Assembly: GCA_964652475.1 (NCBI GenBank)
Contig: CAZZCK010000005.1
Coordinates: 1,658-61,557 of the forward strand
Length of the DNA: 59,900 nt
Source: an uncultured Azospirillum sp.
GTDB taxonomy: Bacteria > Pseudomonadota > Alphaproteobacteria > Rickettsiales > UBA3002
Reading direction: 5' to 3'
The position numbers and the translations under genes were made by a program. Below, piece after piece: positions 11,387 to 44,681 of the stretch. The notes below the pieces were generated by a model, which did no database searches, was not told the origin of the DNA, and was given only the letters and a program-made list of their open reading frames with translations. Position 1 is the first letter of the stretch. Each line of letters begins with the position of its first letter.

Positions 11387-11513
11387 GAGTATCTCCGTTA
11401 ATATGAACGTGGTTGTAGCGACAGCCTAAATGGATTATTCAGCCGACCAGTGCTTACGCAATGCAAATTCTCGTTATGATTGCATTTTCACGCTATTTTA
11501 TTCATGGGCAGGG

Positions 11514-12131: not shown

Positions 12132-12137
12132 AAACCA

Positions 12138-18039: not shown

Positions 18040-18131
18040 GGAGAGGTGGCCGAGTGGCTGAAGGCGCTGGTTTGCTAAACCGGTTTACGGGTAACACCGT
18101 AACGTGGGTTCGAATCCCATCCTCTCCTCCA
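18040..18131 (+). tRNA. tRNA-Ser (anticodon GCU)
   Basis: ggagaggtggccgagtggctgaaggcg...ttGCTaa..., a long variable arm, ...ggttcgaatcccatcctctcctcca. Confidence 0.92.
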
Positions 18132-18154
18132 TGCTAATAACGGGAGTAACCCCA

Positions 18155-19348
18155 ATGGCCTTGCCTTCATCGAAACGCTGGTTAGAGAAATTTTTTCAAG
18201 CGGAATCGTCAGGTGGAATCGTGATGATTGCGGCGGCCATTCTCGCCATGATGTTGGCCAATGGCGCGACTGCTATCTGGTATCAGGATTTTATCAAAAC
18301 GCCGATTGGCTTTGCCTTTGGCGAAATGAGCGCGAGCGAGCCGCTGAAGCAATGGGTCAAAGATATTTTGATGGTGCTGTTCTTCATGCTGGTGGGTATG
18401 GAGCTTAAGCGCGAAATGCTGGAGGGATTTTTATCCGACCGCAAACAAATTCTGCTGCCATTATTGGCAGCTATTGGGGGTATGGCCGCACCGGCGGCGG
18501 TGTTTTTACTGATCAATCAGGGCATGCCCGAGCATACGCGTGGTTGGGCCATTCCGTCCGCGACGGATATTGCTTTTGCGCTGTGCGTGCTCATGCTGGT
18601 TGCCAAAAAACTGCCGCCTTCGCTCAGGATTTTTCTGCTCGCGATTGCAATTTTCGATGATCTTGGTGCGATTTTAGTCATCGCTGTATTTTATAGTGGC
18701 GCCCTCGCCTTAGCACCGCTGATGCTGGCGCTGGCGTGCATGGTGATGCTTTATCTGCTCAACCGGCAAGCGGTGATGCGCCTTTGGCCGTATCTACTGA
18801 TTGGGATCGCGTTATGGTTCTGCCTCTATCACGGGGGCATTCACACCACCATCGGCGGGGTGATCGTGGGCATGGCGATTCCGCTACGCGGTAAAGAAGC
18901 TTCCTCGCACTCCCCCCTCAATGCCTGCATGCATTTTTTACATCCCTGGGTGAGCTTCGTCGTTTTGCCAATTTTTGCCTTTACCGCCGCCGGGGTCAGC
19001 CTTGCGGGTATCACGCTTGAATCATTATTCGACCCACTGGTGCTGGGTGTCGCTATGGGGCTTTTTATCGGCAAGCAAATGGGCATTTTCGGTACAAGTT
19101 TTCTGCTCGTGAAATTGGGTATTGCTCGCTTGCCCGAAGGCACGAACTGGCGGCATATTTATGGGGTTTCGGTCATCGCCGGGGTTGGCTTCACCATGAG
19201 TTTGTTCATTGGTATTCTTGCATTTGAGAGCCACCATTTGCAAGAACAGGCAACGCTGGGCGTGATCACCGGCTCGTTGCTGGCAAGCCTGTGGGGTTGG
19301 CTGGTGCTACGCTATGCACCAAAATCAGCGGTGAATATTACGCCGTAA
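18155..19348 (+). CDS. nhaA: Na+/H+ antiporter NhaA
   Basis: Polytopic membrane protein with NhaA-like blocks (FFMLVGMELKRE, IPSATDIAFALCVL, AIAIFDDLGAI). The ATG at 18155 follows gggag and avoids overlap with the tRNA. Confidence 0.9.
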   Translation: MALPSSKRWLEKFFQAESSGGIVMIAAAILAMMLANGATAIWYQDFIKTPIGFAFGEMSASEPLKQWVKDILMVLFFMLVGMELKREMLEGFLSDRKQILLPLLAAIGGMAAPAAVFLLINQGMPEHTRGWAIPSATDIAFALCVLMLVAKKLPPSLRIFLLAIAIFDDLGAILVIAVFYSGALALAPLMLALACMVMLYLLNRQAVMRLWPYLLIGIALWFCLYHGGIHTTIGGVIVGMAIPLRGKEASSHSPLNACMHFLHPWVSFVVLPIFAFTAAGVSLAGITLESLFDPLVLGVAMGLFIGKQMGIFGTSFLLVKLGIARLPEGTNWRHIYGVSVIAGVGFTMSLFIGILAFESHHLQEQATLGVITGSLLASLWGWLVLRYAPKSAVNITP

Positions 19349-21677: not shown

Positions 21678-21784
21678 TCTACCGATCCATGGCCGAGTTA
21701 TCCACCACCCATAGTAAATCTGTTTACAATAACCACTAAATATTGTCTTTCTAGTGATTATTCACCTCGGTGGACGCGCGCGCG

Positions 21785-23239
21785 ATGCATGACCCGTATG
21801 ACAGCCTATTCACTACCCTGCGCGGGCGGCTGCGACTGGGCGTTTCCACCGTTTTTATTAGCCTTTTATACGCACCGTTAGCACTGGCTTCGCCCACCGT
21901 CGGTGATGTGGTAACCAGCCCAAGCACTAGCCCCCTGCCCTCAACCCAATTGCTCGATGATCCGTCCCTAGGCTCTTCCTTGCCACCGCTGGCAACCAGC
22001 ACGCCAGCGGTCGGATTTCCAGTGCAACCCGCCAATGCCGCTGCCGCCGCACCGGTGCTGACTGCACCCCAATTCCCGCCGGTTGATCCGCAAATTGCGG
22101 CCCGTGCTCAGCAAGAGCTCGATGCCCAAACGGCCCGCGAAAAACGGGTGAATGCCGCTGCCAATAGCGTGCGCGCACCTACCGAGATCACACCGGTAGC
22201 TACAGATGCAGCGCCGCTTCTAGAGCCACCCGTCAAGCCATTAGCATCCACTGCAGCGCCTGCGGCAACGACGACGGCTGAAGCCTCGCGTATTGCTATG
22301 CCGCCACGTTTTATTATCACCCAACCGCTCGAAAATGTTTCAACAACGCCGGCTACGCCATCTACCTCAACTCCGGTTATGGCTACGCAAAGAGTACCAT
22401 CGCGAGCCATTGCGCAAACACAAATCGCTGCGCCGACGCAGGGCCTCTCCAAAGCTTCGAAAACCATTTTAAGTCGTATTCCTTCGCGCTTGAACTCGGC
22501 CACGCCCGCCAAAGGCAAAGCGAGCAAACTGGCAATTAACCGGCTCAGCCCCGATATTCAGGCGCTGGTGGGCAAAGAGCCAACCTATGACAGCTACGAT
22601 GCGGTGGGCCTGAGCATCAAGGTGCAGCGCCCCGGACTCGATACGAATTTCGAGCTTAACCGTGCCTTTAATGCGCTGATGGCGGGGGATAGCACCCAGG
22701 CGCTCGAGACCTACCGCAACATCCTATCGACCGAACCCACGAACGAGGATGCATTGTTTGGTGCCGCGGCGACGTATCATCGCTTGGGCGATCTCGACAA
22801 GGCACGGCCTTTTTACGCGCAACTGCTCAAAATCAATCCCAATCATCGTGAAGCCTTGAATAATTTTCTGGCCTTGATCGGCGATGAGTCACCGCAAGAG
22901 GCAGTGGCTGAACTCGAGCGTCTTGAGCAGCGCAATCCGGATTTCAGCCCCATTCCAGCGCAGCAGAGTTTGCTGCTTTCCAAGCTTGGATTCTTTGATC
23001 AGGCGCGCGAAAAAATGCTGCGGGCCATCGAACTGGCACCGGAAAATCTTACCTATAAATATAATCTCGCGGTGATGCTGGATGCCAATGGCAACTATGC
23101 TGATGCCTCGGCTTTATATCGTTTATTGATCGATGCATCGCTCAAAGGGCAAAAAATCCCAGGATCGCTCGAAATACTGCAAAAGCGCCTGAATTTCATT
23201 ACCACGGCCGCTCTTTCTAAATCGCCTTTGGGTGGCTAG
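21785..23239 (+). CDS. Secreted TPR-repeat protein with a Pro/Ala/Thr-rich spacer (PilF/MshN-like candidate)
   Basis: Signal-like N-terminus (VFISLLYAPLALASP), a long low-complexity region, then several TPR-like repeats (ALETYRNILSTEP, ARPFYAQLLKINPNH, etc.). It lies 65 nt upstream of pilT on the same strand. Confidence 0.72.
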   Translation: MHDPYDSLFTTLRGRLRLGVSTVFISLLYAPLALASPTVGDVVTSPSTSPLPSTQLLDDPSLGSSLPPLATSTPAVGFPVQPANAAAAAPVLTAPQFPPVDPQIAARAQQELDAQTAREKRVNAAANSVRAPTEITPVATDAAPLLEPPVKPLASTAAPAATTTAEASRIAMPPRFIITQPLENVSTTPATPSTSTPVMATQRVPSRAIAQTQIAAPTQGLSKASKTILSRIPSRLNSATPAKGKASKLAINRLSPDIQALVGKEPTYDSYDAVGLSIKVQRPGLDTNFELNRAFNALMAGDSTQALETYRNILSTEPTNEDALFGAAATYHRLGDLDKARPFYAQLLKINPNHREALNNFLALIGDESPQEAVAELERLEQRNPDFSPIPAQQSLLLSKLGFFDQAREKMLRAIELAPENLTYKYNLAVMLDANGNYADASALYRLLIDASLKGQKIPGSLEILQKRLNFITTAALSKSPLGG

Positions 23240-23304
23240 CATGTGCGTGCTACAGCATTCCTCTCACTTTTTGGCTATTTTTTCAACGTAACGAGACAGA
23301 CCGG

Positions 23305-24411
23305 ATGGAAATCACTGACCTCTTGATGGCGACGCATAAAAATAAAGCGTCGGATCTTCATATCTCGACTAAAAACCCGCCCATCATGCGGGTGAACGGC
23401 GATATGCTGCCGCTTGATATGCCCGCCCTTGATGCCGAGCAGGTAAAAAAAATGCTGTTCTCGCTGATGACCGAACAGCAGCGCAGTGACTATGAGCGCG
23501 ACCTCGAACTCGATTTCTCGATATCGTTTGGCAATGATTTACGTTTCCGGGTCAACACGTTTAACACGATTTTTGGCGCAGCCGCAGTGTTTCGCTCGAT
23601 TCCCACCAAAATCATGACCCTCGATGCACTGGGCGCGCCGGAAGTGTTGAAGCGCCTGTGCCATTTGCATAAGGGCCTGATTTTGGTCACCGGCCCCACT
23701 GGCTCGGGCAAATCGACGACGCTTGCGGCGATGGTCGATTACATCAATCAGACCTTCAATAAACATATCCTGACTGTTGAGGATCCGGTCGAATTTGTGC
23801 ATACGCCCAAGCGCTCGCTGATTAATCAGCGCGAAGTCGGTAGCTCGACCAAATCCTTTGCCAAAGCCTTAAAATCCGCCCTGCGCGAAGATCCGGACGT
23901 GATTCTGGTGGGCGAGTTACGCGATCTTGAAACCATTCAATTGGCAATGACCGCGGCGGAAACCGGGCATTTGGTGCTGGGCACGCTGCATACCAGTTCG
24001 GCAGCAAAAACCGTCGACCGGATTATCGATGTCTTCCCGTCCGACGATAAGGAAATGGTGCGGGCGATGCTCTCGCTCTCGCTTGAGGCAGTGGTAACGC
24101 AAGCGTTACTCAAACGGGCAGATGGCAAGGGGCGCGTGGCCGCGCATGAAATTATGCTTGGCTCGCCGGCGATTCGTAACCTCATCCGTGAAGCGAAGGT
24201 GCCGCAAATCACCTCGATGATCCAGATGGGTAGCAAAATGGGCATGGTGCTGATGCGCGACTCACTCAACAAGCTATTCGAGACCGGCGTTATTTCGGCG
24301 GAATCCTTGCGCGAACTGCTCGTCACCAGCGCGCAGTCGGAAGAGGAAACAGCGGCAATCAATGCGGCCGTCGCCAAGCGCCCTGCCACCACGCCCTCCA
24401 GCGCATTCTAG
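23305..24411 (+). CDS. pilT: Type IV pilus retraction ATPase PilT
   Basis: Walker A GPTGSGKSTT, ILVGELRD, GHLVLGTLHT and AIRNLIRE motifs, 368 aa. Confidence 0.93.
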   Translation: MEITDLLMATHKNKASDLHISTKNPPIMRVNGDMLPLDMPALDAEQVKKMLFSLMTEQQRSDYERDLELDFSISFGNDLRFRVNTFNTIFGAAAVFRSIPTKIMTLDALGAPEVLKRLCHLHKGLILVTGPTGSGKSTTLAAMVDYINQTFNKHILTVEDPVEFVHTPKRSLINQREVGSSTKSFAKALKSALREDPDVILVGELRDLETIQLAMTAAETGHLVLGTLHTSSAAKTVDRIIDVFPSDDKEMVRAMLSLSLEAVVTQALLKRADGKGRVAAHEIMLGSPAIRNLIREAKVPQITSMIQMGSKMGMVLMRDSLNKLFETGVISAESLRELLVTSAQSEEETAAINAAVAKRPATTPSSAF

Positions 24412-24418
24412 GGGATTT

Positions 24419-25546
24419 ATGGCATATCCGATCCACGAATTACTGACGCAGATGGTGAGGCAACAAGCCTCTGATCTATACCTGACCTATGGCTGCCCAC
24501 CCAAGCTTCGGGTGAGCGACGCGATTATCGATATTGGCAACGAACCGCTTACCGATGTGCATCTCGAAGCATTGATCAACGAAATTTTAACGCCCGACCA
24601 ACAGGATGAATTTCGTTCGACCAATGAGTTGAATTTGGCCCTGAATGTGACGATGAATGCACGATTTCGTGCCAATATTTTTCGTCAGCAGGGACATGAC
24701 GGGGTAGTCATTCGGCGAATTCAGCAGCAAATCCCAACCATCGAATCACTTGGGTTGCCACCAATTTATGGCGAACTGGCGATGGCCAAACGCGGGTTGA
24801 TTTTGGTTTCCGGCCAGACCGGATCGGGCAAATCGACCTCGCTCGCGGCCATGGTGGGGCACCGCAATCAGCACGGTAGCGGGCATATTATTACGGTCGA
24901 AGACCCGATCGAATTTGTGCATCAGCACCAGCAATGCATTGTCTCGCAGCGCGATGTCGGGCTCGATACCTATTCCTATGCGCTGGCGCTTAAAAATGCG
25001 CTGCGCCAACGCCCTGACTTGGTGGTCATTGGCGAAGTGCGTGACCGCGAAGTGATGGAGCAGGCGATTTATTTTGCCGAGACCGGACATCTCTGCATTG
25101 CCACGATTCATGCGAATAATGCTAGCCAAACCATCGAGCGCGTGTTGAATTTTTTCCCGGAAGAGCGCCATCACCAAGTGCTACTCAACCTCTCACTCAA
25201 TTTACAGGCAACCGTATCGCAACGCATGGTGAGCACGCTCAACGGTGAGCGCTGCCTGGCGCTTGAGATCATGCTCAACCGCGGGATCATTAAGCAATAT
25301 ATCGAGCAAGGGAAGATACGCCATTTACGCGAGATGATTGAAAAAGGTACCAGCGAAGGCATGCAAACGTTCGATCAGCATTTATTTTTGCTCTATGAGC
25401 AGCGCATCATCAGCGAAGAAGTAGCCTTGGCGGAAGCCGATAGTGCATCCAATCTGCGGCTGATGATCCAGAATAAGCGCACGATTGATCGCGGCATCGA
25501 GGTTACCTGGCGCGACGCCAAACCCGCCAGCGAAACGGATTTTTAA
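24419..25546 (+). CDS. pilU: PilT-family ATPase, PilU-like paralogue
   Basis: Walker A GQTGSGKSTS, VVIGEVRD and GHLCIATIHA. It lies in tandem directly after pilT. Confidence 0.85.
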   Translation: MAYPIHELLTQMVRQQASDLYLTYGCPPKLRVSDAIIDIGNEPLTDVHLEALINEILTPDQQDEFRSTNELNLALNVTMNARFRANIFRQQGHDGVVIRRIQQQIPTIESLGLPPIYGELAMAKRGLILVSGQTGSGKSTSLAAMVGHRNQHGSGHIITVEDPIEFVHQHQQCIVSQRDVGLDTYSYALALKNALRQRPDLVVIGEVRDREVMEQAIYFAETGHLCIATIHANNASQTIERVLNFFPEERHHQVLLNLSLNLQATVSQRMVSTLNGERCLALEIMLNRGIIKQYIEQGKIRHLREMIEKGTSEGMQTFDQHLFLLYEQRIISEEVALAEADSASNLRLMIQNKRTIDRGIEVTWRDAKPASETDF

Positions 25547-25562
25547 TTGATTACGATGGCTC

Positions 25563-26342
25563 TCAGGCGGCAGCGCTTGAAAGTGCTTTGTTCGCGCCGA
25601 TGGCTTGTAAAAATGCGCGCTCAAGGCTGGTCTCACCGTAGGTTGGCTTGAAGGCAGAGGCGGTGCCGAGATAAACCAGCTTGCGGTCATGAATAATCCC
25701 AATACGGTCACAGATTTCGTCGATATCCGATAAAATATGTGAACTGAAAAAGAGGGTTTTTCCCTCGCGCTTGGCACGCAGCATCACTTCTTTCAAGCAA
25801 ATGCGGGCGCGCGGATCAAGGCCACTCATCGGCTCATCGAGAATCATGAACGGTTGATCGACCATAAAGGCACCCATCAACCCCAGTTTCTGCCCCATTC
25901 CCTTGGAGTAGGAACCGACTTTGCGCTCGAGCACATCGGGGTTCAAATCAAGCTCGGCCGCAAGGATTTTGGCTTTTTCGCGGTCGAGCGTTTTGCCATA
26001 ATACGATAACGCCAAAGCGAGATGCTCGTAACCTTTGAGGTAGCGCGAGGGGACAAATTTTTCAGGCAGGTACGAAAGCTGAGCGCGGGCAGCAACATGC
26101 GTTGAGGCTTGCCCAAAAATGCTCGCCGTGCCGCTATTGGCCTTCGCCAAATCAAGCAAAAGTTTGATCAGTGTGGTTTTGCCTGCGCCATTTAAGCCGA
26201 CAAGACCAAAGATTTCTCCTGGCTCAAGCGCGAAGCTGATATCCTCAAGCACCGATTGTTTGCCATACGATTTCACAATATGGCTCACCACGAGCGGTGA
26301 TGTGGCAAGCGGCGGTGCGCTTAGGGGTTCCGGCGATAGCAT
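25563..26342 (-). CDS. ABC transporter ATP-binding protein (ABC-2/NatA-like), with no adjacent permease
   Basis: Walker A GLNGAGKTT, signature YSKGMGQKL and Walker B FMILDEP. A GGAG precedes the ATG at 26342. It is the last gene of the pilB operon. Confidence 0.85.
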   Translation of the reverse strand: MLSPEPLSAPPLATSPLVVSHIVKSYGKQSVLEDISFALEPGEIFGLVGLNGAGKTTLIKLLLDLAKANSGTASIFGQASTHVAARAQLSYLPEKFVPSRYLKGYEHLALALSYYGKTLDREKAKILAAELDLNPDVLERKVGSYSKGMGQKLGLMGAFMVDQPFMILDEPMSGLDPRARICLKEVMLRAKREGKTLFFSSHILSDIDEICDRIGIIHDRKLVYLGTASAFKPTYGETSLERAFLQAIGANKALSSAAA

Positions 26343-26371
26343 AGAGTCTCCTTCGATCATGCGCGCGAGAT

Positions 26372-27373
26372 TTAGGGGTTAGCAACCGACAGCGGCACGG
26401 GGTCTGGCGGTGGGGGCACCGGCAAGGCTTGCTGGCCGGGGTCGATTGGCGGATTCGTTGCTGGATCGAGCGGATTGGTGCCTGCCTGCGCTGCAGGCAC
26501 AGGAGCCGGGAGCGCTTCGAGCGCTGGCGAATCGACAAAACCTTCAAATAATTTGAAATAGCCCACGGCAAAGGATTGGTTGGGCTTGAGGGTGAAGGTC
26601 ATCGCCTCACGTTCCTCATCAAAGCGAATCGATTGCGACTGAGAAAGCTTGTGCTTCACCGCGGCGGTGGGCGCAAATGCATTAAGCTCGACGCGCCGCT
26701 TGATCGCCTCGCCATAGCTTGGCTGCCATAAAAACGTGGCACTATCACGCGTGACATTGACCACGGTTAAATCGGTGGGGTTCACGCGCGAGGTGATCTT
26801 ATAGCCACTCACCCATAGCGACCAATCCCCCGGCGCATCGTAGGCAATGCTCGCCAGATAAAAGACGGGATATTCCTTGCGATCAACCACCGTTGGCGGT
26901 GCTACGGTTTCAACTGGCGTGGCCGCAACCGCCGTTTTCCCCGTATCCTCGAAGATGCGGATCGCTTGCTTCATGCGCTCGATATCGGCGGGAAGAAAGA
27001 GGATGCTATTCGTTGCATTGCCATAGGAATAGCGCTTAGGCGGTGGCGGCAGCGATGCAGCTTGATCCGGTTGTGCAGTGATTGGAGCTGCTGCTGGCGT
27101 TGCAGCGGTGGTGGCGGGGACTACCGGCAAGGCGTTTGCCGGTGGTGGTACAGGGGGGGCAACTGGAGTTGACGCAATCGCAGGAGCAAGTGGCAGCGGT
27201 GGGGTCGGCGATGGCGCAGCCGTGGGGGATGCGGGCGGTAGTACTGGCACGCTCACCGCAGGCAACGGCAAGGCATCCGGCGGCAGGGTTTGCGCTACGG
27301 TCATGCTCGCACACAACCCGAGCACCATGAGGCCGAGATGGTATTTCATGCGATGCGATGTGATGACCTTCAT
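26372..27373 (-). CDS. Secreted Pro-rich protein with a central beta-rich domain (candidate PilP / GspC-HR / MshK analogue)
   Basis: Signal peptide MKYHLGLMVLGLCASMTVAQT, Pro/Ala-rich tracts at both ends, and a core FYLASIAYDAPGDWSLWVSGYKITS...VVNVTRDSATF. The assignment rests on position and architecture only. Confidence 0.6.
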   Translation of the reverse strand: MKVITSHRMKYHLGLMVLGLCASMTVAQTLPPDALPLPAVSVPVLPPASPTAAPSPTPPLPLAPAIASTPVAPPVPPPANALPVVPATTAATPAAAPITAQPDQAASLPPPPKRYSYGNATNSILFLPADIERMKQAIRIFEDTGKTAVAATPVETVAPPTVVDRKEYPVFYLASIAYDAPGDWSLWVSGYKITSRVNPTDLTVVNVTRDSATFLWQPSYGEAIKRRVELNAFAPTAAVKHKLSQSQSIRFDEEREAMTFTLKPNQSFAVGYFKLFEGFVDSPALEALPAPVPAAQAGTNPLDPATNPPIDPGQQALPVPPPPDPVPLSVANP

Positions 27374-27380
27374 GCGTTTC

Positions 27381-28058
27381 CTATATCAACCGGTTGCGCG
27401 CTTGAGTGGCATCGGCTTTTTTCTCCTCGGTTGCTTTGGGCACCATCCGGATCCAGGTAAATTCGATCGTGGCATCGACCAATAAGGGGGTTGTCCCGGT
27501 TTGGATTTGAGAAAAAAAGACCTCGGAAAGATCGGCATCGCGTTTGATTTCAACTTTATCAATACGCACCAAGCCTGGGGCGGAGCGGCGCAAATCATCG
27601 ATAAATGAATAGACATGAACATCCGACACCGCCTTAAAGCTGATGCTGTAGCGCTGACGCAGCATCACCGTGTAGTTGAAATTGGCCAGTTCGGGTTTAT
27701 CGCTCGCCGCTTCTTTGCTTGATTTGATGTTGGCCTTATTCAAGCCATGCTGCAAGGCGGAGCGCTCCAGAAATTCGCGTAAATCTTCAATCGTTGCCGT
27801 AAAATCATCGCTATTGCGATTCAGCTGAATTTCAGCGTAACGTTTTTGTGACTCGCCGGATTTCTCAAGCTGAGTACGCAAATTACCCAGCAGCGAATTA
27901 TCCTGACTGAATTTACTTTCCATACTGGTTTTTTGTTCCATGCTACTTTGCGCATGCATGCTGGCCGCCGCCAAGAGGCCGCCGCACACCAGCAGAGTGG
28001 CCACGATGATGGCCGCTAATTTGGTAATGCGTTTTGTCAGTTGGCGGTATTTGTTCAT
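27381..28058 (-). CDS. Bitopic membrane protein (candidate PilO / GspM / MshJ analogue)
   Basis: Short cytoplasmic N-terminus, one TM segment (LAAIIVATLLVCGGLLAAA), a coiled-coil segment and a small C-terminal domain. It overlaps the upstream gene by 4 nt. Confidence 0.6.
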   Translation of the reverse strand: MNKYRQLTKRITKLAAIIVATLLVCGGLLAAASMHAQSSMEQKTSMESKFSQDNSLLGNLRTQLEKSGESQKRYAEIQLNRNSDDFTATIEDLREFLERSALQHGLNKANIKSSKEAASDKPELANFNYTVMLRQRYSISFKAVSDVHVYSFIDDLRRSAPGLVRIDKVEIKRDADLSEVFFSQIQTGTTPLLVDATIEFTWIRMVPKATEEKKADATQARNRLI

Positions 28059-29791
28059 GGCCCGACCTTTTGAGGGGGTTGACCGTTGGCTCCCGCCGGC
28101 GCGTCTGGTAATTTTTTAATGCCGCGCAGCCGAATCGTCGCAATCGGGTTGGTGATGATGCGGTTTGAGGTCGCGCCAAGCTCGACGACGGCTTCTTCGC
28201 TGCGTGCCTCATCCGTCCGCCAGGAGAAGGTATCGGCTTTGATATCATATTGCGGTAAGGCGCGGGTAAGCGCGGCAATAAACCCATCTGCCGCCGCATC
28301 GATCGGCACGAGGCTGCTACCGGCCCCAGAAAAATCCACGGTGAGGGTGATGCCCACCGGCAATTCTTCCACCGGGGTGCCCGCGGGTTTAGGCGTGGTT
28401 GGTGCGTCCGTGACTTTGGAGGCATCCCGATCCCATACCATGGAAGTGATGCGCTGCGAAGGTGTCACCAACGGTGCGAGCTGGGCGATAAAATCGTCGA
28501 TCAGTGGCGCATCTTTTACGTAAGCATCATGCGCCGCCACCACGACCGACTTAAAGGCCACATCGGTATCAAGCCCGGCAACCGTTGTTTTCATTTTTTG
28601 TAATTCCGGCTGCAGCTGATTCCATTTGCTTTGCGCTTGCGTCATCATCGATGCGCTTTGGAACGACTCGACCACCGAGGCCCCCGCCAGGCCAATGAGC
28701 AAAAGGGCAATCAACCCGCCACCAATACGCAAGCCGAGCATACCCTGATAGAGCTTATCCAGCTTCATCATGTAGGCGTTGGCGAAGCGCAAGCTGCGTT
28801 TTTTATGGATCCCAAACGCTGCCGCCATCACCACATCGCCAAAGCGATCGGCCGAAAGCGCCGCTTGCTCGAGCCCTAAGCCTTCCGCCGCTTCCAGTGG
28901 CGTATAGGCCACTGCCCGACCAAAGCCAAAGCGCTTGAGATCAAGCGAATCAATCACCTCGCGGGCGGTGATAATCGTTGTGTCAAGATTGGCGTTATCC
29001 TCAAAATCAAGGCGTTTGAGGTATTCAATCGTATTGATGATTTCCTGCTCGATACTGCCGGCCAGCACGGCGGCAATCCCATCATCGATCGCTTGCGAAA
29101 CGCGCGTAAATACCAGCTTACCATCGCGCATCACGACCTGACGAAACCCGGAAACTTTATGGTGCGAAATCAGCAATTGCCAGGCGCGAGGTTTTTCATC
29201 GCTCATGCGTTTATTGAGCAACCCCACGTAATGCGTCGCTTCGACGGGCGTGAGGTAGATGCCTTTCATCTGGTTGGGCAGCTCGAGCAGCAAATCAAGC
29301 CATTCATGCAGTAGCGGCGTTTTTGAAAGGGCCACCAGCAAATATTTCCATTCCTTGCGGCCTGTTTTATCCCGACCGATTTGCAGCGCACCTTTTAAGT
29401 CTTCGGGCTGAAAATCACGCTCAAGGCGGCGCTTGACCAGGCCAGCAATGGATAACGGGCTGACCGGTGGAAAGGTTTGCGGGATATATTGCTGATCGAG
29501 TACGTCGGCTAAAATACTCACTGGTACGTTTGGATTCGCGCGCATGATTTCGACAATGGCTTCGGCATGGTCTTTTCCGGCCGATGGCGCAAATAAACGG
29601 CGCACGACTTTTGCCCCGTGCATAAAAATAAGAATGCCGCCCTCATCGCCGATGATCAAGACAAAGCGTTTACCACCCCCCGCCGGTGGACGGCCTTTCG
29701 CCGATTTTTTCTGGCGTTTCACGCGCGGTGGCTTCGGCGACGTTACTGCACCATTTTCGGAAGGGTTTGCCTGTTTGCGCCCGCGCTTCAT
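28055..29791 (-). CDS. Large bitopic protein (candidate PilM-PilN fusion / GspL / MshI analogue)
   Basis: 578 aa: a basic disordered N-terminus, a ~350-aa cytoplasmic domain, one TM segment (GGLIALLLIGLAGASVV) and a ~190-aa periplasmic domain. It starts 6 nt after the pilC stop. Confidence 0.6.
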   Translation of the reverse strand: MKRGRKQANPSENGAVTSPKPPRVKRQKKSAKGRPPAGGGKRFVLIIGDEGGILIFMHGAKVVRRLFAPSAGKDHAEAIVEIMRANPNVPVSILADVLDQQYIPQTFPPVSPLSIAGLVKRRLERDFQPEDLKGALQIGRDKTGRKEWKYLLVALSKTPLLHEWLDLLLELPNQMKGIYLTPVEATHYVGLLNKRMSDEKPRAWQLLISHHKVSGFRQVVMRDGKLVFTRVSQAIDDGIAAVLAGSIEQEIINTIEYLKRLDFEDNANLDTTIITAREVIDSLDLKRFGFGRAVAYTPLEAAEGLGLEQAALSADRFGDVVMAAAFGIHKKRSLRFANAYMMKLDKLYQGMLGLRIGGGLIALLLIGLAGASVVESFQSASMMTQAQSKWNQLQPELQKMKTTVAGLDTDVAFKSVVVAAHDAYVKDAPLIDDFIAQLAPLVTPSQRITSMVWDRDASKVTDAPTTPKPAGTPVEELPVGITLTVDFSGAGSSLVPIDAAADGFIAALTRALPQYDIKADTFSWRTDEARSEEAVVELGATSNRIITNPIATIRLRGIKKLPDAPAGANGQPPQKVGP

Positions 29792-29797
29792 GCCTAC

Positions 29798-30997
29798 CTA
29801 AAATTTCATTTGCGAGAAGGACTGGTAAAGCGGGCCAAACACTGCGGCAATCACCCAGAAAATCAGCGCCCCCATGACCAATGTCATCACCGGTTGAATC
29901 ATCCCGACCAGCGCATCGACCGAGTCGTTTACTTCGCGGTCATAGAAGAATTTGATGTTGCTCATCGCATCACCCATGTTGCCGGAATCTTCACCGACCT
30001 TGAACATACGAATCACCAAGGTTGGGAATTGATTGGATATGCGCAACGATGCGGTGAGGTTATTTCCCTCAACAATGCTGCGATGGACAGTTTCGACCGA
30101 TTCCTTGATCACCCGGTTTTTGACGACGTTGCGCGCTGCCGTCAGCGCTTCGGGAATGTTGATGCCACTGCTGAACATCACCGAAAAGAAATGGGTGAAA
30201 CGTGCCAGATCGATTTTGCGTAAGGTGGGGCCAATCGCCGGCAGCTTCAGCAGCATACTATCGACCTTATACGCAAAGTTTTCGTTGGCTCGATAGAGCG
30301 CCATACAGATCATGAAGATTCCGATCGGGATACCAAAAATGAGGTGCCAACTCGATTGAAACGCCTCGGAAGTATAGATCAATGCTTTGGTGTGGGCCGG
30401 GATTTTGAAGCCCTGCTCGGTGATGAATTTGAGCAATTTGGGCACGACGGCAGTCATCAGAATCGCGATCACACCCGACATTACCACGAGCAGTACAATC
30501 GGGTAACTAATCGCCTTTTTCACTTTGCGGCGCAGGTCATTCGTCCATTTCAAATGGTTCGACATATTGACGAATGAATCGGTCAGCTTACCATTCTTCT
30601 CACCCGCACCGACCAAACCGATAAAAATTTCATTAAACACACGCGGGTAATTCGCCAGCGCCTGCGACAAGGAGCTACCGGTTTTTATTTTCTCGAGCAC
30701 ATCACTCATGATGTCGCGCATTTTCGCCGATTCGGTCGAGTCGCGCACATCCGCGATCGCTTCATGAATTGGAATCCCGGCGCGGCTTAATTGCTCGAGA
30801 TGCAGACACAGGATAATCATATCCTTGCTTTTGATTCGGGCTTTTTTACTGCTGTTGCGCTTTTGCTCGCGGTAGTTGACGAGGTCGAGGCCCACCTCCT
30901 TCAAGCGCGTTTCAAGATCCACCTCGTTCTCGGCGACCATCGAGCCACGCACCGTGCGGCCACGCTCATTGAGCGCACTATAGGTAAACTGAGCCAT
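29798..30997 (-). CDS. pilC: Type IV pilus / T2SS platform protein (PilC/GspF family)
   Basis: 399 aa with duplicated T2SSF-type cytoplasmic domains and three TM segments. C-terminal ...GPLYQSF..., typical of the family. Confidence 0.9.
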   Translation of the reverse strand: MAQFTYSALNERGRTVRGSMVAENEVDLETRLKEVGLDLVNYREQKRNSSKKARIKSKDMIILCLHLEQLSRAGIPIHEAIADVRDSTESAKMRDIMSDVLEKIKTGSSLSQALANYPRVFNEIFIGLVGAGEKNGKLTDSFVNMSNHLKWTNDLRRKVKKAISYPIVLLVVMSGVIAILMTAVVPKLLKFITEQGFKIPAHTKALIYTSEAFQSSWHLIFGIPIGIFMICMALYRANENFAYKVDSMLLKLPAIGPTLRKIDLARFTHFFSVMFSSGINIPEALTAARNVVKNRVIKESVETVHRSIVEGNNLTASLRISNQFPTLVIRMFKVGEDSGNMGDAMSNIKFFYDREVNDSVDALVGMIQPVMTLVMGALIFWVIAAVFGPLYQSFSQMKF

Positions 30998-31060
30998 AGC
31001 ACTCCATGGGTTGCACGCCGGGCGCGCCGGACAGCATGTTGGTGAACATGGATGAAGCTA

Positions 31061-32929
31061 TTACAAGCGGTCGGTCAGGTCTACCGTATTAATCAGCTCG
31101 GGGATATCTATGCTCCCCGCCAGTACCTTACTGATGCCGTCTTGCACCATCGGCACAAATCCATTTTGCAATGCGTATTCGAGCATCTGATTGCGGGTGG
31201 CTTTGGTCGCGATCAACTCATCCATCCCGTGATCAATCCGTAAAATTTCGTGCACTCCCATACGCCCCTTGTAACCCTTGAAGCCGCAACGTTCGCAGCC
31301 GACAGCTTCGTGCACGGTGGGTGGGTTTTTCTCATCCGCCCCGATCAGGCGGCATTCCTCGGTAGTAGCGGGACGCGGCTTACGACACACCGTGCATAGC
31401 TTGCGCGCCAAGCGCTGCGCCATCGTACAGATCAGCGACCCGGCCAACAAATGCGGCGGCACACCAATATCGCCCAAGCGCGGAATGGTGCCAAGCGCAT
31501 CATTCGTGTGCAAGGTGGTGAAGACCTGGTGACCGGTCAGCGCTGCCCGCACGGCCATTACCGCAGTTTCTTCGTCGCGCACCTCACCGAGGAAGATAAT
31601 GTCGGGATCTTGCCGCATCAGCGATTTAATGCCGGATTGAAAGTCGATCACGCCTTCGCGCACATTGGTTTGGCGAATCAGCGGTAATTGGTACTCGACC
31701 GGATCCTCAAGCGTCATGATGTTCACATCAATCGAGTTGATGTAGCTGAGCACCGAATAGAGGGTCGTTGTTTTCCCCGAGCCGGTTGGGCCGGTGACGA
31801 CGATGATGCCCTCCGGCCGTTTCAAGCAGCGCTTAATCAGCTCGAGATTATGCTCGGAAAAGCCAAGATTTTCAATCGGCACCAGCGATTTCGATTTATC
31901 CAAAATCCGTAAGACCACGTTTTCACCATGCACGGTGGGCTGAGTGGCAACACGAAAATCGACCTCACGGCCAAGCGCCACGATGCTGATGCGCCCATCC
32001 TGTGCACTACGCGTTTCCGCGATATTCATGCCCGACATAATTTTCAGCCGTACCAGAATGGCGGGCCAATAATCGCGGTGGAAGCTGCGAATCTGCTGCA
32101 AAGCCCCGTCGATCCGATAGCGCAGGCGCAAGAAGGATCCCTCCGGCTCGAAATGGATATCCGAGCAGCCCTGTTTGATCGCGTCGATCAGCAAGGCATT
32201 CACCAGGCGTACCGTCGGGTTAACATAGCCCTCTTCCCGGCCATCGAGCTGGGTTTTATCACGAATACCCGTCTCGATTTCGCGCAATACCCCGTCGATC
32301 GACAGGTCGTAGTTATAATAGCGCTCGATGAGATCAATAATTTCGGTTTCGGTACAAAAAATCGGGATAATTTTGATGGATTTATCGAGATGGCGGCGCA
32401 CCTGGTCGATGGCGAGCACGTTGTAGACATCCGCCATCGCGAGCTTCACCGTTTGCCCGGAAAGCTCCACCGGGATAACCTTGTTGCGCATACACACTTC
32501 TCGCGGCACAATCGCCAGCAAGTTGGTGTCGAGCATGGTCGATTTCGAATCAAAGCGCTCGGAACCCGAGCTTTCGGCCAGCACTTCGCCCAGCGCGCTC
32601 TCGGTGATAAAATTCATCGAGATCATGATTGAGCCGAGCAGCTTTTTCGATTTTTGCTGCTCGCGCAGGGCAATTTCGAGCTGATCTTTGGAAATTAAGC
32701 CCAGTGAAATCAGTTTTTCACCAATCCGTACGGGGCGCGCATCCGGTGGTTTTTTACCCAAGCCCGATTCAGGTGGTGCGCCCAGCACTGCTGCAGGCGC
32801 GGCGGTAGGGGCAACATCCTCGGCACGCGGAGCTGTTGCTGGCGCAGCCTCAGCCGTCCGCGCGGCCTTAGGGCTATGCGATAGGAAATCACCTTCGGAT
32901 GCATCCGGCGGGGTCATGATCTCTGGCAT
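31061..32929 (-). CDS. pilB: Type IV pilus assembly ATPase (PilB/GspE family, MshE-like N-terminus)
   Basis: Walker A GPTGSGKTTT, FLGEVRD, GHQVFTTLHT and the tetracysteine CTVC...CERC. The N-terminal RIGEKLISLGLISKDQLEIALREQ matches the MshEN motif. Confidence 0.93.
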   Translation of the reverse strand: MPEIMTPPDASEGDFLSHSPKAARTAEAAPATAPRAEDVAPTAAPAAVLGAPPESGLGKKPPDARPVRIGEKLISLGLISKDQLEIALREQQKSKKLLGSIMISMNFITESALGEVLAESSGSERFDSKSTMLDTNLLAIVPREVCMRNKVIPVELSGQTVKLAMADVYNVLAIDQVRRHLDKSIKIIPIFCTETEIIDLIERYYNYDLSIDGVLREIETGIRDKTQLDGREEGYVNPTVRLVNALLIDAIKQGCSDIHFEPEGSFLRLRYRIDGALQQIRSFHRDYWPAILVRLKIMSGMNIAETRSAQDGRISIVALGREVDFRVATQPTVHGENVVLRILDKSKSLVPIENLGFSEHNLELIKRCLKRPEGIIVVTGPTGSGKTTTLYSVLSYINSIDVNIMTLEDPVEYQLPLIRQTNVREGVIDFQSGIKSLMRQDPDIIFLGEVRDEETAVMAVRAALTGHQVFTTLHTNDALGTIPRLGDIGVPPHLLAGSLICTMAQRLARKLCTVCRKPRPATTEECRLIGADEKNPPTVHEAVGCERCGFKGYKGRMGVHEILRIDHGMDELIATKATRNQMLEYALQNGFVPMVQDGISKVLAGSIDIPELINTVDLTDRL

Positions 32930-33095
32930 GGTTGGTGGTCAAACAAATTACATAAGACGATGCATTATTTTAGAGGATAAGCGCCCCGCTAAGGCAAGTA
33001 AAATCAAAGCAATGTACTTAAATTATGCGCGAACAATCCGTCAGTGTGGTGTTTTTTCTAGCATCGGGTCCATGAGTTGGGCTATGCAACGCGCT

Positions 33096-33224
33096 ATGGA
33101 TCCCAATATCTATATTACCAGCGCTTATCTGATCACGGCCTTACTGCTAGTGGGCCTGTGCGTGCAAACCTGGCGGGCGGCACGCCGTATTACGCGCCAG
33201 CGGCGCGACCATCCCCATCCATGA
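33096..33224 (+). CDS. ccmD: Heme exporter protein CcmD (small ORF not listed separately in the ORF track)
   Basis: MDPNIYITSAYLITALLLVGLCVQTWRAARRITRQRR: one TM segment followed by a basic tail. The stop overlaps the ccmE ATG (ATGA). Alternative starts are at 33072 and 33084. Confidence 0.65.
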   Translation: MDPNIYITSAYLITALLLVGLCVQTWRAARRITRQRRDHPHP

Positions 33225-33673
33225 AAGCCAAACATCAGCGTTTGCTTTGGGTAATGTTCAGCATACTGGTCATGGCGGGTGCCGCCACGATGATGCTCAG
33301 CGCCATGCGCGATACGCTGATATTTTTCTATACGCCAAGCCAATTAAACGAGAAACGCACCCACCCCGAATTTGATGCCAAACGCCCGCTACGCATCGGT
33401 GGATTGGTCAAAGCCAGCAGCGTTCATAACCTTGAAACGGGTGGCATTCGCTTTACCATCACCGATCTGACGCAGGAAATCGACGTGACGTATCGCGGGC
33501 TGCTACCCAGTTTGTTCCGCGAAGGGCAAGGTGTGGTGGCGCAAGGCACGCTCAATGCCGACGGCGCGCTTGATGCCCAGAGCATTCTGGCCAAGCATGA
33601 TGAAACCTACATGCCGCGCGAGGTGATGGAACAGCTCAAAGCCTCGGGTAAATGGAAGGGCGGCGCGCCATGA
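33221..33673 (+). CDS. ccmE: Cytochrome c-type biogenesis heme chaperone CcmE
   Basis: An N-terminal TM anchor plus the heme-binding region LAKHDETYMPREV. Confidence 0.92.
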   Translation: MKAKHQRLLWVMFSILVMAGAATMMLSAMRDTLIFFYTPSQLNEKRTHPEFDAKRPLRIGGLVKASSVHNLETGGIRFTITDLTQEIDVTYRGLLPSLFREGQGVVAQGTLNADGALDAQSILAKHDETYMPREVMEQLKASGKWKGGAP

Positions 33674-35634
33674 TCCCCGAACTTGGTCAGCTTTGCCTCG
33701 TGCTGGCACTGATGATGAGCCTGCTGCAAGCGGCAGTGCCCCTACTCGCGCGCTGGAGCCATCCGCATTCCCTGCTGCATCTCACCAAGCCGATTGCTAC
33801 CGGTGTTTTTCTTTTGATTACAGCTGCATTCACTGCCTTACTGGTAAGTTTTGCCGTTTCTGATTTTTCGGTGTTGCTGGTTGTTCTTCATTCGCATAGC
33901 GCCAAGCCGCTGCTCTATAAAATCGTGGGCACCTGGGGCAACCATGAAGGCTCGATGCTGCTATGGATGTGGGTGCTGAGCGCCTCAGGGTTTTTGGTCG
34001 CCCTCACCCGCGCGCAGGATACGCAACTTAAAGGCATCACCCTCGCTGTGCTCGGCGCACTGGGTGCTGGCTTGCTGGCCTTTATTCTCTTCACCTCGAA
34101 CCCTTTTATTCGCGTTTTTCCAAGCCCGCTGGATGGGGAAGATCTCAACCCGATTTTGCAGGATATCGGCCTCGCGTTCCACCCGCCGACACTTTACGTC
34201 GGCTATGTCGGTTTTGGGGTGGCGTTTGCCTATGCCATCGCCGGCCTATGGCTCAAACGCATCGATAGCAATTGGGCGCGTACGGTGCAGCCATGGATTT
34301 TGCTGCCCTGGAGCTTTCTTACCCTGGGTATTGCCGGTGGCAGTTGGTGGGCCTACCGCGAGCTGGGCTGGGGGGGCTGGTGGTTTTGGGACCCGGTCGA
34401 GAATGTCTCGCTGCTGCCCTGGCTGACGGGTACGGCGCTGCTACATTCCAACCGCGTGCTCGAGCGTCGTGGCCAATTGGCACGCTGGGTGGTGCTGCTC
34501 GCCATTCTCACGTTCACCCTGTCCTTGATTGGCACATTTATTGTCCGCTCGGGGCTGATTACCTCGGTGCATGCGTTTGCTTCCGACCCGGCGCGCGGCA
34601 TGTTCATTCTGGCCTATATCGGTGTCGTCAGCGGACTGGCTTTATGGATGTACGGCGCGCGGGTGAACCATATTGCGGCGAATACATCAATGCAGATCAT
34701 CTCACGCAACGGCTTCATCCTCATCAATAACCTGATTCTCGTCGCCGCGGCAGCGGTGGTGCTGTTCGCCATTCTTTACCCGCTCGCGCTCGAGCTGCTC
34801 GGCCTGCCTGCGATCTCAATCGGCCCGGCCTATTTCAACCGCACCGTGCTGCCGCTCTGCGCTGTGTTGCCGGTGCTTTGCGCCCTCGCCCCTTTGATGG
34901 GGTGGGATGCGACCAGCCTTCATCAATTACGCCGATTATGTCTCACCCTGGGTCCATCCTTGCTGGCGGCGGCGATCATCGGCCTTGCGCTATTTTCCCC
35001 CCTATCGGCGTTGGGAATGGTGGGTATGGCCCTTACCGCCTGGCTCGCTTATGGTAGTTGGTATGCATTGCGCCGCCTGCGTACCGCGCAGCTACGACTC
35101 ACCTCGAGCCAGGGCATTCGCCAGATCGCCAGCATCATCGCCCATTTTGGCTTTGCGATCTTTATCCTGGGCATGACCACCACCGGCCTGATGAAGCAAA
35201 CCTACGACCTGCCCCTTACGCCCGATGCACCGATGGTGGCGGGTGCCTATACGCTTGAGTTGGTCGGTGTCGAGCGGCACGCGCAACATACGTATGAATC
35301 ACGCATCGCCCGTTTTGATATTCGCAAAAATGGGCAAGCCATCACCACCCTTGCACCGGAATTACGCAGCTACACCGTGCGTGGTATGCAAACCAGCGAA
35401 GCGGCGCTCTACTCGACCCCATGGCGCGATCTTTACCTGGTGCTGGGTGAAGCGAATGTTGCGCAAGGCGGGAAAGAATCGCGGCTTGGCATCCGGCTTT
35501 ATGTCACCCCCGGCCAGCAACTGATATGGATCGGCTTTATCCTCGCCGGAGTTGCTGGACTTTTGGCCCTATTCGTTGCATTTTCATCGCGATCACCCGT
35601 TAAGGATTCATCATGCGCCGTATACCCTTCCTGA
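33670..35634 (+). CDS. ccmF: Cytochrome c heme lyase subunit CcmF
   Basis: WGGWWFWDPVEN tryptophan-rich motif in a large polytopic protein. The ATG overlaps the ccmE stop. Confidence 0.94.
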   Translation: MIPELGQLCLVLALMMSLLQAAVPLLARWSHPHSLLHLTKPIATGVFLLITAAFTALLVSFAVSDFSVLLVVLHSHSAKPLLYKIVGTWGNHEGSMLLWMWVLSASGFLVALTRAQDTQLKGITLAVLGALGAGLLAFILFTSNPFIRVFPSPLDGEDLNPILQDIGLAFHPPTLYVGYVGFGVAFAYAIAGLWLKRIDSNWARTVQPWILLPWSFLTLGIAGGSWWAYRELGWGGWWFWDPVENVSLLPWLTGTALLHSNRVLERRGQLARWVVLLAILTFTLSLIGTFIVRSGLITSVHAFASDPARGMFILAYIGVVSGLALWMYGARVNHIAANTSMQIISRNGFILINNLILVAAAAVVLFAILYPLALELLGLPAISIGPAYFNRTVLPLCAVLPVLCALAPLMGWDATSLHQLRRLCLTLGPSLLAAAIIGLALFSPLSALGMVGMALTAWLAYGSWYALRRLRTAQLRLTSSQGIRQIASIIAHFGFAIFILGMTTTGLMKQTYDLPLTPDAPMVAGAYTLELVGVERHAQHTYESRIARFDIRKNGQAITTLAPELRSYTVRGMQTSEAALYSTPWRDLYLVLGEANVAQGGKESRLGIRLYVTPGQQLIWIGFILAGVAGLLALFVAFSSRSPVKDSSCAVYPS

Positions 35635-36155
35635 TCTTTTTATTGCTCGCATTCGGCCTGGCCCTGGCCCTCACCCAGCACAATCAGCCAGTGGCGGCGG
35701 GTGTTACCACCGCCAAAGCATTTCCGGATATGCGCGTCGCCATGCTTGAGGGCAAAGGTGAATGGACGGCCAGCAAATCACTGCCCGGTAACGTCACGCT
35801 CATCAATTTTTATGCGAGTTGGTGTACCCCATGTGCGGCGGAAATGCCGGAACTCATCGCCCTGAAAAAACAATTTCCGAAGTTGAAATTTGTCGGCATT
35901 GCCTGGAACGACACGCCCGAAACGCTGAATAAATGGCTCAAAAAAAATGGCAACCCGTTTGATGTTTTGTTGCTGGATGGCGAAGGCAAAGCGACGATCG
36001 ATTTGGGTATCAAAGGCCTGCCGGAAACACTGATCGTCGCGGCAGATGGCACCATTCGCTACCGCCATGCCGGGCCCATCACCGCCGCCATGCGCGAAGG
36101 GGAATTTGGCACGATGATTGGCGATTTGCTTGCCGAAAAACCCAATGCGAAATAA
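35613..36155 (+). CDS. ccmG: Thiol:disulfide oxidoreductase CcmG/DsbE
   Basis: Membrane anchor plus a thioredoxin fold with WCTPC and GIKGLPET. Confidence 0.9.
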   Translation: MRRIPFLIFLLLAFGLALALTQHNQPVAAGVTTAKAFPDMRVAMLEGKGEWTASKSLPGNVTLINFYASWCTPCAAEMPELIALKKQFPKLKFVGIAWNDTPETLNKWLKKNGNPFDVLLLDGEGKATIDLGIKGLPETLIVAADGTIRYRHAGPITAAMREGEFGTMIGDLLAEKPNAK

Positions 36156-40568: not shown

Positions 40569-40714
40569 GCATATCGCAGCATCAAAAAAACTGTTGCGGA
40601 TTTTCGCTATCGTTATGGCGTTTCATTATGATATGCGGCTCTCGGCTTTGTCATTCCCACCTCGTCACGTAACGGTTTGAATCCGCTGGCAATCGATTGC
40701 ACAGCCCATCTATT

Positions 40715-40782
40715 TGTCATTCCCGCGAAGGCGGGAATCCACTTGTTAACTCAAGGAGATTCCCGCCTTCGCGGGAATGACA
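40715..40782. repeat. Family B nested palindromic element (tgtcattcccgc...gcgggaatgaca)
   Basis: tgtcattcccgcgaaggcgggaatcc ... ggagattcccgccttcgcgggaatgaca. A solo terminus tgtcattccc lies at 40649-40658. Confidence 0.85.
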
Positions 40783-40938
40783 AATGGCAAGGTTTTTATT
40801 CGAATCTCGTATATTTCACTCTAGGGCAGCGGCCAAGTACGATTGGGTGTTTTCACCAGCCCAGGCTTCGCTCTAACGAGCTTCGCCGGGCATTGCTTCG
40901 CCCAAGGCGATTTTGCTTCACAAAATCGGGGCGAAGCG

Positions 40939-44619: not shown

Positions 44620-44681
44620 CTTGGGCATCGTGTACGGCAGTGTTAACCTATACTCGTTTGGAATAAAAACCTAACAACCTT

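Follow-up and report, generated by a model that had tools for sequence, protein, structure and literature searches.

The window analysed here is a 59.9 kb stretch of DNA (contig CAZZCK010000005.1, positions 1,658–61,557, of assembly GCA_964652475.1), and is the only sequence covered for its source genome, that of an uncultured bacterium deposited as Azospirillum sp. and placed by GTDB in the Rickettsiales (UBA3002). All coordinates refer to this window. Between nt 21770 and 32929 it carries nine genes that probably encode the cytoplasmic and inner membrane core of a type IV pilus (T4P) machine. An initial annotation of the window had described them as a T4P or mannose-sensitive haemagglutinin (MSHA)-like cluster made of two convergent units, and all nine open reading frames (ORFs) were found at the coordinates it gave. 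They are listed below, with the prepilin gene of the same window; X, Y and Z denote three proteins without a Pfam or NCBIfam match.

21770–23239, plus strand: secreted tetratricopeptide repeat (TPR) protein, 489 aa (alternative start at 21785, the ATG chosen in the initial annotation)
23305–24411, plus strand: PilT, 368 aa (TIGR01420)
24362–25546, plus strand: PilU (TIGR01420; probable start at ATG 24419)
25563–26360, minus strand: ABC ATPase, 265 aa, or ~259 aa from the second ATG (PF00005)
26372–27373, minus strand: Z, 333 aa
27381–28058, minus strand: Y, 225 aa
28055–29791, minus strand: X, 578 aa
29798–30997, minus strand: PilC, 399 aa (PF00482, T2SSF)
31061–32929, minus strand: PilB, 622 aa (PF00437 and PF05157)
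44703–45518, plus strand: type IV prepilin (PF07963, TIGR02532; HG/FTLVE cleavage motif)

On the minus strand, gaps of 63 nt (pilB to pilC), 6 nt (pilC to X) and 7 nt (Y to Z) separate the genes, and X and Y overlap by 4 nt. The gap between Z and the ABC ATPase gene is 11 nt if the longest ORF of the latter is taken; the 29 nt given initially holds with its second ATG. The pilU and ABC units are convergent, with 16 nt between their stop codons. A scan for promoters and terminators returned counts within chance expectation and was uninformative.

The motor proteins bear out the T4P or MSHA-like assignment. PilB matches T2SSE (PF00437, E 1.9e-117) and, by Pfam scan, the MshEN domain (PF05157, E 9.7e-19); it also scores 57.7 bits against the NCBIfam model for the cyclic di-GMP (c-di-GMP) binding motif (NF053729, cut-off 38), and both 24-residue halves of the MshEN motif are legible in its sequence. 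Walker A, Walker B and tetracysteine motifs are all present. Scores against the PilB (TIGR02538) and GspE (TIGR02533) models were 495 and 482 bits, respectively, neither reaching the equivalog cut-off. PilC shows T2SSF (PF00482) in two stretches (E 3.4e-50) and three transmembrane (TM) segments, and is slightly nearer to GspF (TIGR02120, 302 bits, cut-off 424). Both retraction ATPases pass the TIGR01420 cut-off of 319 bits (PilT 471.6, PilU 417.5). The AIRNLIRE motif occurs in PilT (residue 289) and is absent from PilU, which has a Walker A motif; judged from motifs, this is the expected pattern of a PilT/PilU pair. PilB is thus an extension ATPase with an MshEN c-di-GMP-binding domain, PilC the platform protein, and PilT and PilU the retraction ATPases.

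The three genes that follow pilC had been proposed as a minimal alignment complex whose products would not be routine PilMNOP matches. The second part of this proposal was borne out, as hidden Markov model (HMM) scans of the window proteins gave zero Pfam or NCBIfam matches for X, Y and Z, and every member of the Y and Z families lacked a match to PilN, PilO, PilP, GspC or GspL even at E ≤ 10. Sequence-profile searches of the PDB for homologues of X, Y and Z returned only noise, with nothing significant. The alignment complex itself gained support for X and Y from modelling and family alignment, while Z could be likened to PilP or GspC by gene position only.

X belongs to a family of at least 246 homologues, all unannotated, from alphaproteobacterial and "Rickettsiales" metagenome-assembled genomes. 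An AlphaFold2 (AF2) model built on an alignment of 43 homologues had a mean predicted local distance difference test score (pLDDT) of 74, with the folded domains above 90. It consists of a cytoplasmic two-lobed alpha/beta domain (~41–330), a long helix with a single TM segment (356–374), a coiled coil, and a periplasmic part (~431–557) modelled as an alpha-beta-beta-alpha-beta domain. In Foldseek searches of the PDB the top matches were to PilM, from Pseudomonas aeruginosa (5eou/5eoy, E 2e-7), Thermus thermophilus (2ych) and Myxococcus xanthus (3jc8_Ma). The PilM matches ranged from E 2e-7 to 2e-4, with probability 1.0, and FtsA and other actin-fold proteins came next; no GspL structure was among the 50 matches listed. 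No PilM HMM in Pfam or NCBIfam matched X, so that the PilM assignment is by fold alone. From the topology of the model and the PilM matches, X is best described as a PilM-like domain joined to a PilN-like membrane and periplasmic part, that is, a predicted PilM-PilN fusion with a topology like that of GspL or MshI.

In Y, a single TM helix at the N-terminus is followed by a coiled coil and a C-terminal domain. A profile search placed it in a family of 863 representative clusters, and the members listed are mostly 204–275 aa long. By hhalign, residues 103–218 of Y align with residues 442–567 of X (probability 91.6%, E 8e-7), and this paralogy with the periplasmic domain of X suggests that Y is PilO- or GspM-like. 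The putative kinship is the same relation as that of PilO to PilN, or GspM to GspL. A weak T2SSM match (E 8e-4) was seen in one of 43 distant Y members; HMM scans of the family and the PDB profile search otherwise gave no likeness to PilN, PilO or GspM. Y and the C-terminal part of X, being paralogous and of the right topology, are candidates for a PilN/PilO pair; no PilN or PilO HMM matched, and no PDB sequence match was significant.

Z begins with a signal peptide of the signal peptidase I type, followed by a Pro-rich disordered linker, a short helix (128–145) and a conserved beta-rich domain (~166–280), which is modelled by AF2 with pLDDT above 90. The family alignment shows no conserved lipobox, and none of its 27 members matches any Pfam or NCBIfam model, PilP included. 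PilP is a lipoprotein with a beta-sandwich that binds the N0 domain of the secretin, and Z did not show these features. Identity with PilP or the HR domain of GspC by fold was considered and dropped, since a Foldseek search of the PDB with the Z model found nothing significant (best E 0.05, to unrelated folds). Because no fold or profile match was obtained, equivalence of Z to PilP, GspC or MshK is drawn from its gene position and compartment only. It follows Y in all related loci.

The ABC protein (PF00005, ABC_tran, E 2.2e-23) has intact Walker A, signature, Walker B and H-loop motifs. It scores 145 bits against TIGR01188 and 132 bits against GldA, both under cut-off, and is, by these similarities, a predicted ABC-2-type, DrrA/GldA-like ATP-binding protein. 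TM prediction found no multi-pass membrane ORF, as expected of a permease, among the unannotated ORFs of the window. The TPR protein opens with a hydrophobic segment; a low-complexity Pro/Ala/Thr region separates this from the TPR repeats at the C-terminus (~290–460), which match TPR_2, TPR_19 and TPR_16 in Pfam. It weakly resembles PilW (TIGR02521, 36.5 bits, cut-off 154) and likewise Tgl.

Genome and metagenome scans, together with two contig look-ups, provided 43 related loci of ~20 kb each (referred to by number, such as L028). In more than 20 of these the order is identical: ccmF-ccmE, then pilB-pilC-X-Y-Z-ABC, then convergent pilU-pilT-TPR, and finally the M23 peptidase gene and pyrD. 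Identity to the window proteins is 54–87% for PilB, 52–83% for PilC and 49–84% for the ABC ATPase, and falls to 31–57% for X, 21–49% for Y and 24–56% for Z. Several loci are rearranged. In L028 the genes TPR-pilT-pilU-pilC-X-Y-Z-ABC share one strand and pilB is convergent, while in L030 X-Y-Z faces pilC-pilB. L031 and L043 keep pilB-pilC-X-Y-Z-ABC, and L033 (Ca. Arcanobacter lacustris) has X-Y-Z-ABC alone, without pilB or pilC nearby. The TPR gene is linked to pilT-pilU in relatives, the rearranged L028 included. With more than 20 independent loci showing the arrangement, and linkage surviving rearrangement, chance does not account for it.

In almost all loci that extend far enough, L031, L033 and L043 among them, the ABC gene comes after Z, and the X-Y-Z-ABC linkage in these three persists down to 32–36% X identity; the one exception is L030, where pilC and pilB follow Z instead. 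This confirms the earlier view of the ABC ATPase as part of the cluster and shows it to be an integral, conserved member, and since X-Y-Z-ABC is the tightest unit it is argued that the ATPase works with the scaffold proteins. The alternative that survives best is that Z and the ABC ATPase are not pilus components and merely share the operon while serving an unrelated function, for example as part of an exporter. Neither protein resembles a known component of T4P, type II secretion (T2SS) or MSHA systems, and ABC-2 ATPases normally pair with a permease, of which none is present. However, both genes belong to the most persistent linkage of the cluster, their junctions are overlaps or gaps of no more than 11 nt, and the ABC ATPase is conserved as well as PilC is. 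Because Z and the ABC gene are among the most persistently linked genes, we regard this alternative as unlikely.

Two of the divergent loci have a gene for a cell-wall-binding protein next after the ABC ATPase gene. That of L031 (10669–13947; genome UBA6187) is a 1092-aa protein with ankyrin repeats and a SPOR domain, and that of L022 (14356–16089) is a 577-aa protein with a PG_binding_1 domain. By analogy with FimV, TsaP and ExeA, these could anchor the machine to peptidoglycan in a lineage-specific way.

A secretin, a prepilin peptidase and a pilin had all been reported as lacking from the cluster. With respect to the window this stands for the first two: all of its ORFs of at least 150 aa were scanned, and none encodes a secretin or an A24 peptidase. 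Nor did a secretin adjoin the module in any of the 43 loci. Large neighbouring genes in divergent loci were considered as secretin candidates and rejected, as they encode CysNC, HtpG, AlaRS, an Ank/SPOR protein, a PG-binding protein, ATP synthase and an OEP-family protein. A secretin and peptidase do not sit just beyond it in one operon with the cluster either; ccmE/ccmF and the M23 peptidase gene and pyrD bound the cluster in many relatives. What is not supported is a lack at the level of the system. In L043 a genuine A24 peptidase (PilD) is encoded 6 kb upstream of pilB, and BLAST and tblastn searches with this protein found no second copy in the window or any of the loci. A homologue of the window pilin (38% identity) lies inside the cluster of L024, between the ABC gene and pilU. 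For the genomes UBA6178 and UBA6189, and for that of Micavibrio, a secretin and a peptidase are listed as well, as described below. The L043 peptidase gene is immediately upstream of sulfate-assimilation genes; cysH and cysNC are found just upstream of pilB in this locus (14–3464), and in L023 (4709–6619) and L026 (4536–6470).

The initial annotation had placed a single pilin gene 12 kb from the cluster, behind a repeat, and this proved correct. A six-frame scan of the window found one prepilin motif, in the ORF at 44703–45518, with a palindromic repeat directly upstream. The mature protein would be ~238 aa, with a pair of Cys residues near the C-terminus. The ATG at 44703, which opens the longest ORF, is inside a copy of the palindromic element (GGGAATGACAAA; region 44680–44778), and for this reason the start is probably Met 44754 or 44778. 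A start at 44778 gives an 8-residue leader and a precursor of ~246 aa; GMV_1530 of Micavibrio is 247 aa.

The palindromic element resembles repetitive extragenic palindromic (REP) sequences, with a core of ATTCCCGC-N4-GCGGGAAT flanked by TTTGTC/GACAAA. Five copies are present in the window, where none is expected by chance, and two are arranged as hairpin pairs. They are found at 40712–40785, 44680–44710 (the copy directly upstream of the pilin gene) and 51765–51825. The element also occurs once each in L001, L010 and L020, and never within the pilus cluster. Beside the pilin gene, on the minus strand, are two unannotated ORFs (45534–46079, 181 aa; 46083–46691, 202 aa), the second of which is Gly/Ala-rich with one hydrophobic segment. 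Homologues of both (38–62% identity) adjoin the M23 peptidase gene that flanks the cluster in L014 and L016.

Three of the loci come from genomes with published inventories: L017 is from UBA6189 and L023 from UBA6178 (both Ca. Mitibacteraceae), and L031 is from UBA6187 (Athabascaceae). According to Supplementary Data 4 of Schoen et al. 2022 (PMC9352585), every Mitibacteraceae genome has one member of a secretin family, annotated as K12282 mshL in 90% of its members, and one PilD, along with PilB, PilC, two to three copies of PilT/PilU, and pilins. The canonical PilM/N and PilQ families were restricted to Athabascaceae. These tables rest on automated annotation (MacSyFinder, KEGG). As the rows for UBA6178 and UBA6189 list both a secretin and a peptidase, genomes with the module carry these genes elsewhere, and the alignment complex of the Mitibacteraceae genomes had simply gone unrecognised. 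T4aP (type IVa pilus) systems are typically encoded at several loci (PMC6668835).

A similar, contiguous series of genes is found in Micavibrio aeruginosavorus ARL-13 (GMV_1530–1544; PMC3189940, Additional file 4). It includes GspE (1929 nt), GspF (1221 nt), three hypotheticals of 1767, 645 and 693 nt, an ABC gene (699 nt) and a TPR gene (1590 nt), and continues with a type IV leader peptidase (GMV_1537), two PilT-family genes (1191 and 1095 nt) and a secretin (GMV_1534); a highly expressed 744-nt prepilin gene is nearby (PMC3189940). Order and gene lengths match those of the module. The differences are that the Micavibrio cluster has its secretin and leader peptidase inside, and that the order of its TPR and PilT genes is not the same. 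When the clusters of the Y family were looked up, none of the members was a named Micavibrio protein. A cryo-electron tomography preprint on Wolbachia and a paper on Comchoanobacter were followed as T4P leads and set aside, both being about type IV secretion systems.

We consider it likely that the locus encodes the cytoplasmic and inner membrane core of a retractile T4P machine, T4aP-like with MSHA and T2SS traits. Rather than being absent, the secretin and peptidase most likely have their genes elsewhere in the genome. In the proposed mechanism, c-di-GMP-activated PilB would dock on PilC and a ring of X cytoplasmic domains, and polymerise the pilin encoded at 44.7 kb after its precursor had been cleaved by a PilD encoded elsewhere. 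X and Y would heterodimerise in the periplasm, as do PilN/PilO or GspL/GspM, and Z, with its long Pro-rich linker and beta domain, would bridge the X-Y subcomplex to an MshL-type secretin encoded elsewhere. The TPR protein may aid secretin assembly or stability, in the manner of PilF, PilW, Tgl and MshN. PilT and PilU would retract the fibre, and the ABC ATPase could be an accessory energising or assembly factor, by analogy with PilGHI of M. xanthus and the MSHA ATPase MshM.

Several results weigh against this reading. A secretin, PilD and minor pilins were not shown for the source genome, of which the 59.9 kb window is covered. PilB and PilC fall under every equivalog cut-off, and the PilB and GspE models are about equally close. 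For Z, similarity was detected neither to PilP or the HR domain of GspC nor to any fold in the PDB, a lipobox is lacking, and we infer its bridging role from position only. A permease partner for the ABC ATPase was not found, there being no permease gene in the cluster or the window. The Micavibrio correspondence rests on gene order and length, not on sequence.

A more far-reaching interpretation is offered tentatively, as a possibility that we would not yet favour. Here, X-Y-Z-ABC would be an undescribed alignment and energising module for type IV filaments, in which a PilM-PilN fusion is accompanied by a PilO-like partner, PilP/GspC is replaced by a periplasmic connector of new fold (Z), and a soluble ABC ATPase is a working part. 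Rickettsiales and related alphaproteobacteria, the latter possibly predatory, would have it as their ancestral pilus scaffold.

The cluster might also be read as a T2SS variant, in which GspE, GspF, a GspL-like X, a GspM-like Y and a GspC-like Z build a short periplasmic pseudopilus that secretes hydrolases, with no surface pilus. The best score of PilC is indeed that against GspF (302 bits), PilB lies almost as near to the GspE model as to the PilB one, X has the fused topology of GspL, and one distant Y relative matches T2SSM. In addition, NCBI labels a close PilB relative as 'GspE/PulE family', and the Micavibrio paper counted such genes as an incomplete T2SS. On the other hand, the two PilT-family ATPases exceed the TIGR01420 cut-off and are linked to the module even in L028, the fold of X is that of PilM, with no GspL among the 50 matches listed, neither a GspC-like HR/PDZ domain nor a gspG-K pseudopilin operon was found, and the associated pilin is large (~238 aa mature) with a predicted C-terminal disulphide pair. 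The conserved linkage with two retraction ATPases speaks against a T2SS variant, which we think improbable.

That X-Y-Z and the ABC ATPase form a new trans-envelope or periplasmic device without a secretin pore is highly improbable: no secretin was found in the window or the ~43 loci, the fold of Z has no PDB match and the ABC ATPase is linked to X-Y-Z, but published inventories credit relatives that carry the module with a secretin of the mshL type, and its occurrence across Rickettsiales follows that of PilB and PilC. The Micavibrio cluster, which matches in order, includes a secretin too, the conserved genes of the cluster include one for a TPR protein of a type that goes with secretins, and multi-locus encoding is normal for T4aP. 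The absence of a secretin from the locus is therefore no evidence for a secretin-less machine, and a retractile T4P machine remains the preferred reading.

Type IV pili are a proposed ancestral means of host attachment in Rickettsiales (PMC9352585, PMC10847448), and their presence in the basal clade had been reported (PMC9352585). Published inventories for the basal families list PilB, PilC, PilD, PilT/U, pilins and an MshL-type secretin only, with no alignment complex. The source lineage is a basal Rickettsiales-type alphaproteobacterium, and its scaffold proteins are too divergent for standard annotation. A series matching in order and gene length had been sequenced in 2011 and annotated as hypothetical. 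What appears to be undescribed is that X and Y can be assigned as the scaffold of PilM-N/PilO type that was missing, together with the Z family, whose fold has no PDB match, and an ABC ATPase tied to the scaffold. Of the cluster as a whole, it is X-Y-Z-ABC, a conserved module, that had not been described. The contribution of the analysis is that the missing scaffold has likely been identified, as three protein families without a Pfam or NCBIfam model, and that an ABC ATPase is linked to it (L030 excepted). Detection models such as MacSyFinder/TXSScan could be extended with the genes for X, Y, Z and the ABC ATPase. The relevance is moderate, for specialists on pili and Rickettsiales, and lies in improved detection models.

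The left flank of the cluster is occupied by housekeeping genes (M23 peptidase, pyrD, nhaA, holB and metG) and the right flank by ccmE, ccmF and a DsbE (ccmG-type) gene. Genes for cytochrome c maturation fall into two groups, with a ccmA-like ABC ATPase gene and ccmB at 11430–12785, and ccmE, ccmF and the DsbE (ccmG-type) gene at 33077–36155. The ~20 kb between the two groups is filled by the pilus cluster and other genes. The longest ORF of nhaA (18104–19348) is overlapped at its 5′ end by tRNA-Ser(GCT) (18040–18131), and its start is therefore probably further downstream. A secreted 416-aa protein of the TIGR03118 family (259.7 bits, cut-off 80) is encoded on the minus strand at 41123–42373, between tRNA-His and glnA. 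In NCBIfam this family is described as hypothetical and as linked to PEP-CTERM systems.

With T4aP (P. aeruginosa, M. xanthus, T. thermophilus) the locus shares a tetracysteine extension ATPase, a platform protein, and PilT (with AIRNLIRE) and PilU. A PilM-like domain of actin fold, paralogous periplasmic domains in the bitopic proteins, a large pilin led by a class III signal peptide, and multi-locus encoding are further common traits. The M. xanthus pil cluster also includes an ABC system, PilGHI. The differences are that PilM and PilN are here in one polypeptide, without HMM-level similarity to PilM/N/O/P, that Z is neither a lipoprotein nor PilP-like by fold, and that the alignment genes come after pilB-pilC and not ahead of pilQ. 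Furthermore, the secretin of the relatives is annotated as MshL rather than PilQ, and PilB has MshEN. Among the components by which a T4aP system is recognised, PilB and PilC, a PilT-family retraction ATPase, PilM (by fold alone) and the class III signal peptide pilin were found, and PilQ and PilD were not, in the window or the 20-kb neighbourhoods (the L043 PilD being 6 kb away).

Likeness to the MSHA system of Vibrio (mshIJKLMNEGF and a pilin operon) is seen in the MshEN domain of the ATPase, in the fused PilM/PilN-type protein with MshI-like topology that is followed by two small envelope proteins, in the extra ATPase and TPR protein, which match MshM and MshN by role, and in the K12282 mshL secretin of the relatives. 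It differs in that the genes of the small envelope proteins and of the accessory ATPase have no secretin gene between them; in that this ATPase is ABC-type whereas MshM is an AAA+ protein like ExeA; in having PilT and PilU in the cluster; and in that the pilin operon is not adjacent. X, Y and Z match no Pfam or NCBIfam model, and no comparison specific to MshI/J/K was run. An MshE with its MshEN domain is thus present. An mshIJKL block with MshL is not, no secretin following Z in the 43 loci, and neither are MshM and MshN as such, since the ATPase is ABC-type and the TPR protein shows generic TPR similarity only.

With T2SS (GspE, F, L, M and C) the locus shares the layout of X, which is that of GspL (an actin-like domain in the cytoplasm, a TM segment and a ferredoxin-like domain in the periplasm), and a Y that approximates GspM in size, topology and one weak T2SSM match; PilC scores best against GspF. 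It differs from T2SS in its retraction ATPases, in the fold of X, which is that of PilM (GspL being absent among the matches listed), and in having no GspC HR/PDZ domain, pseudopilin operon or gspD in the locus. The full T2SS set of a GspL/M/C platform, gspD and gspG-K, with no retraction ATPase, was accordingly not found. The system mixes T4aP, MSHA and T2SS traits, and is a clean member of none of the three.

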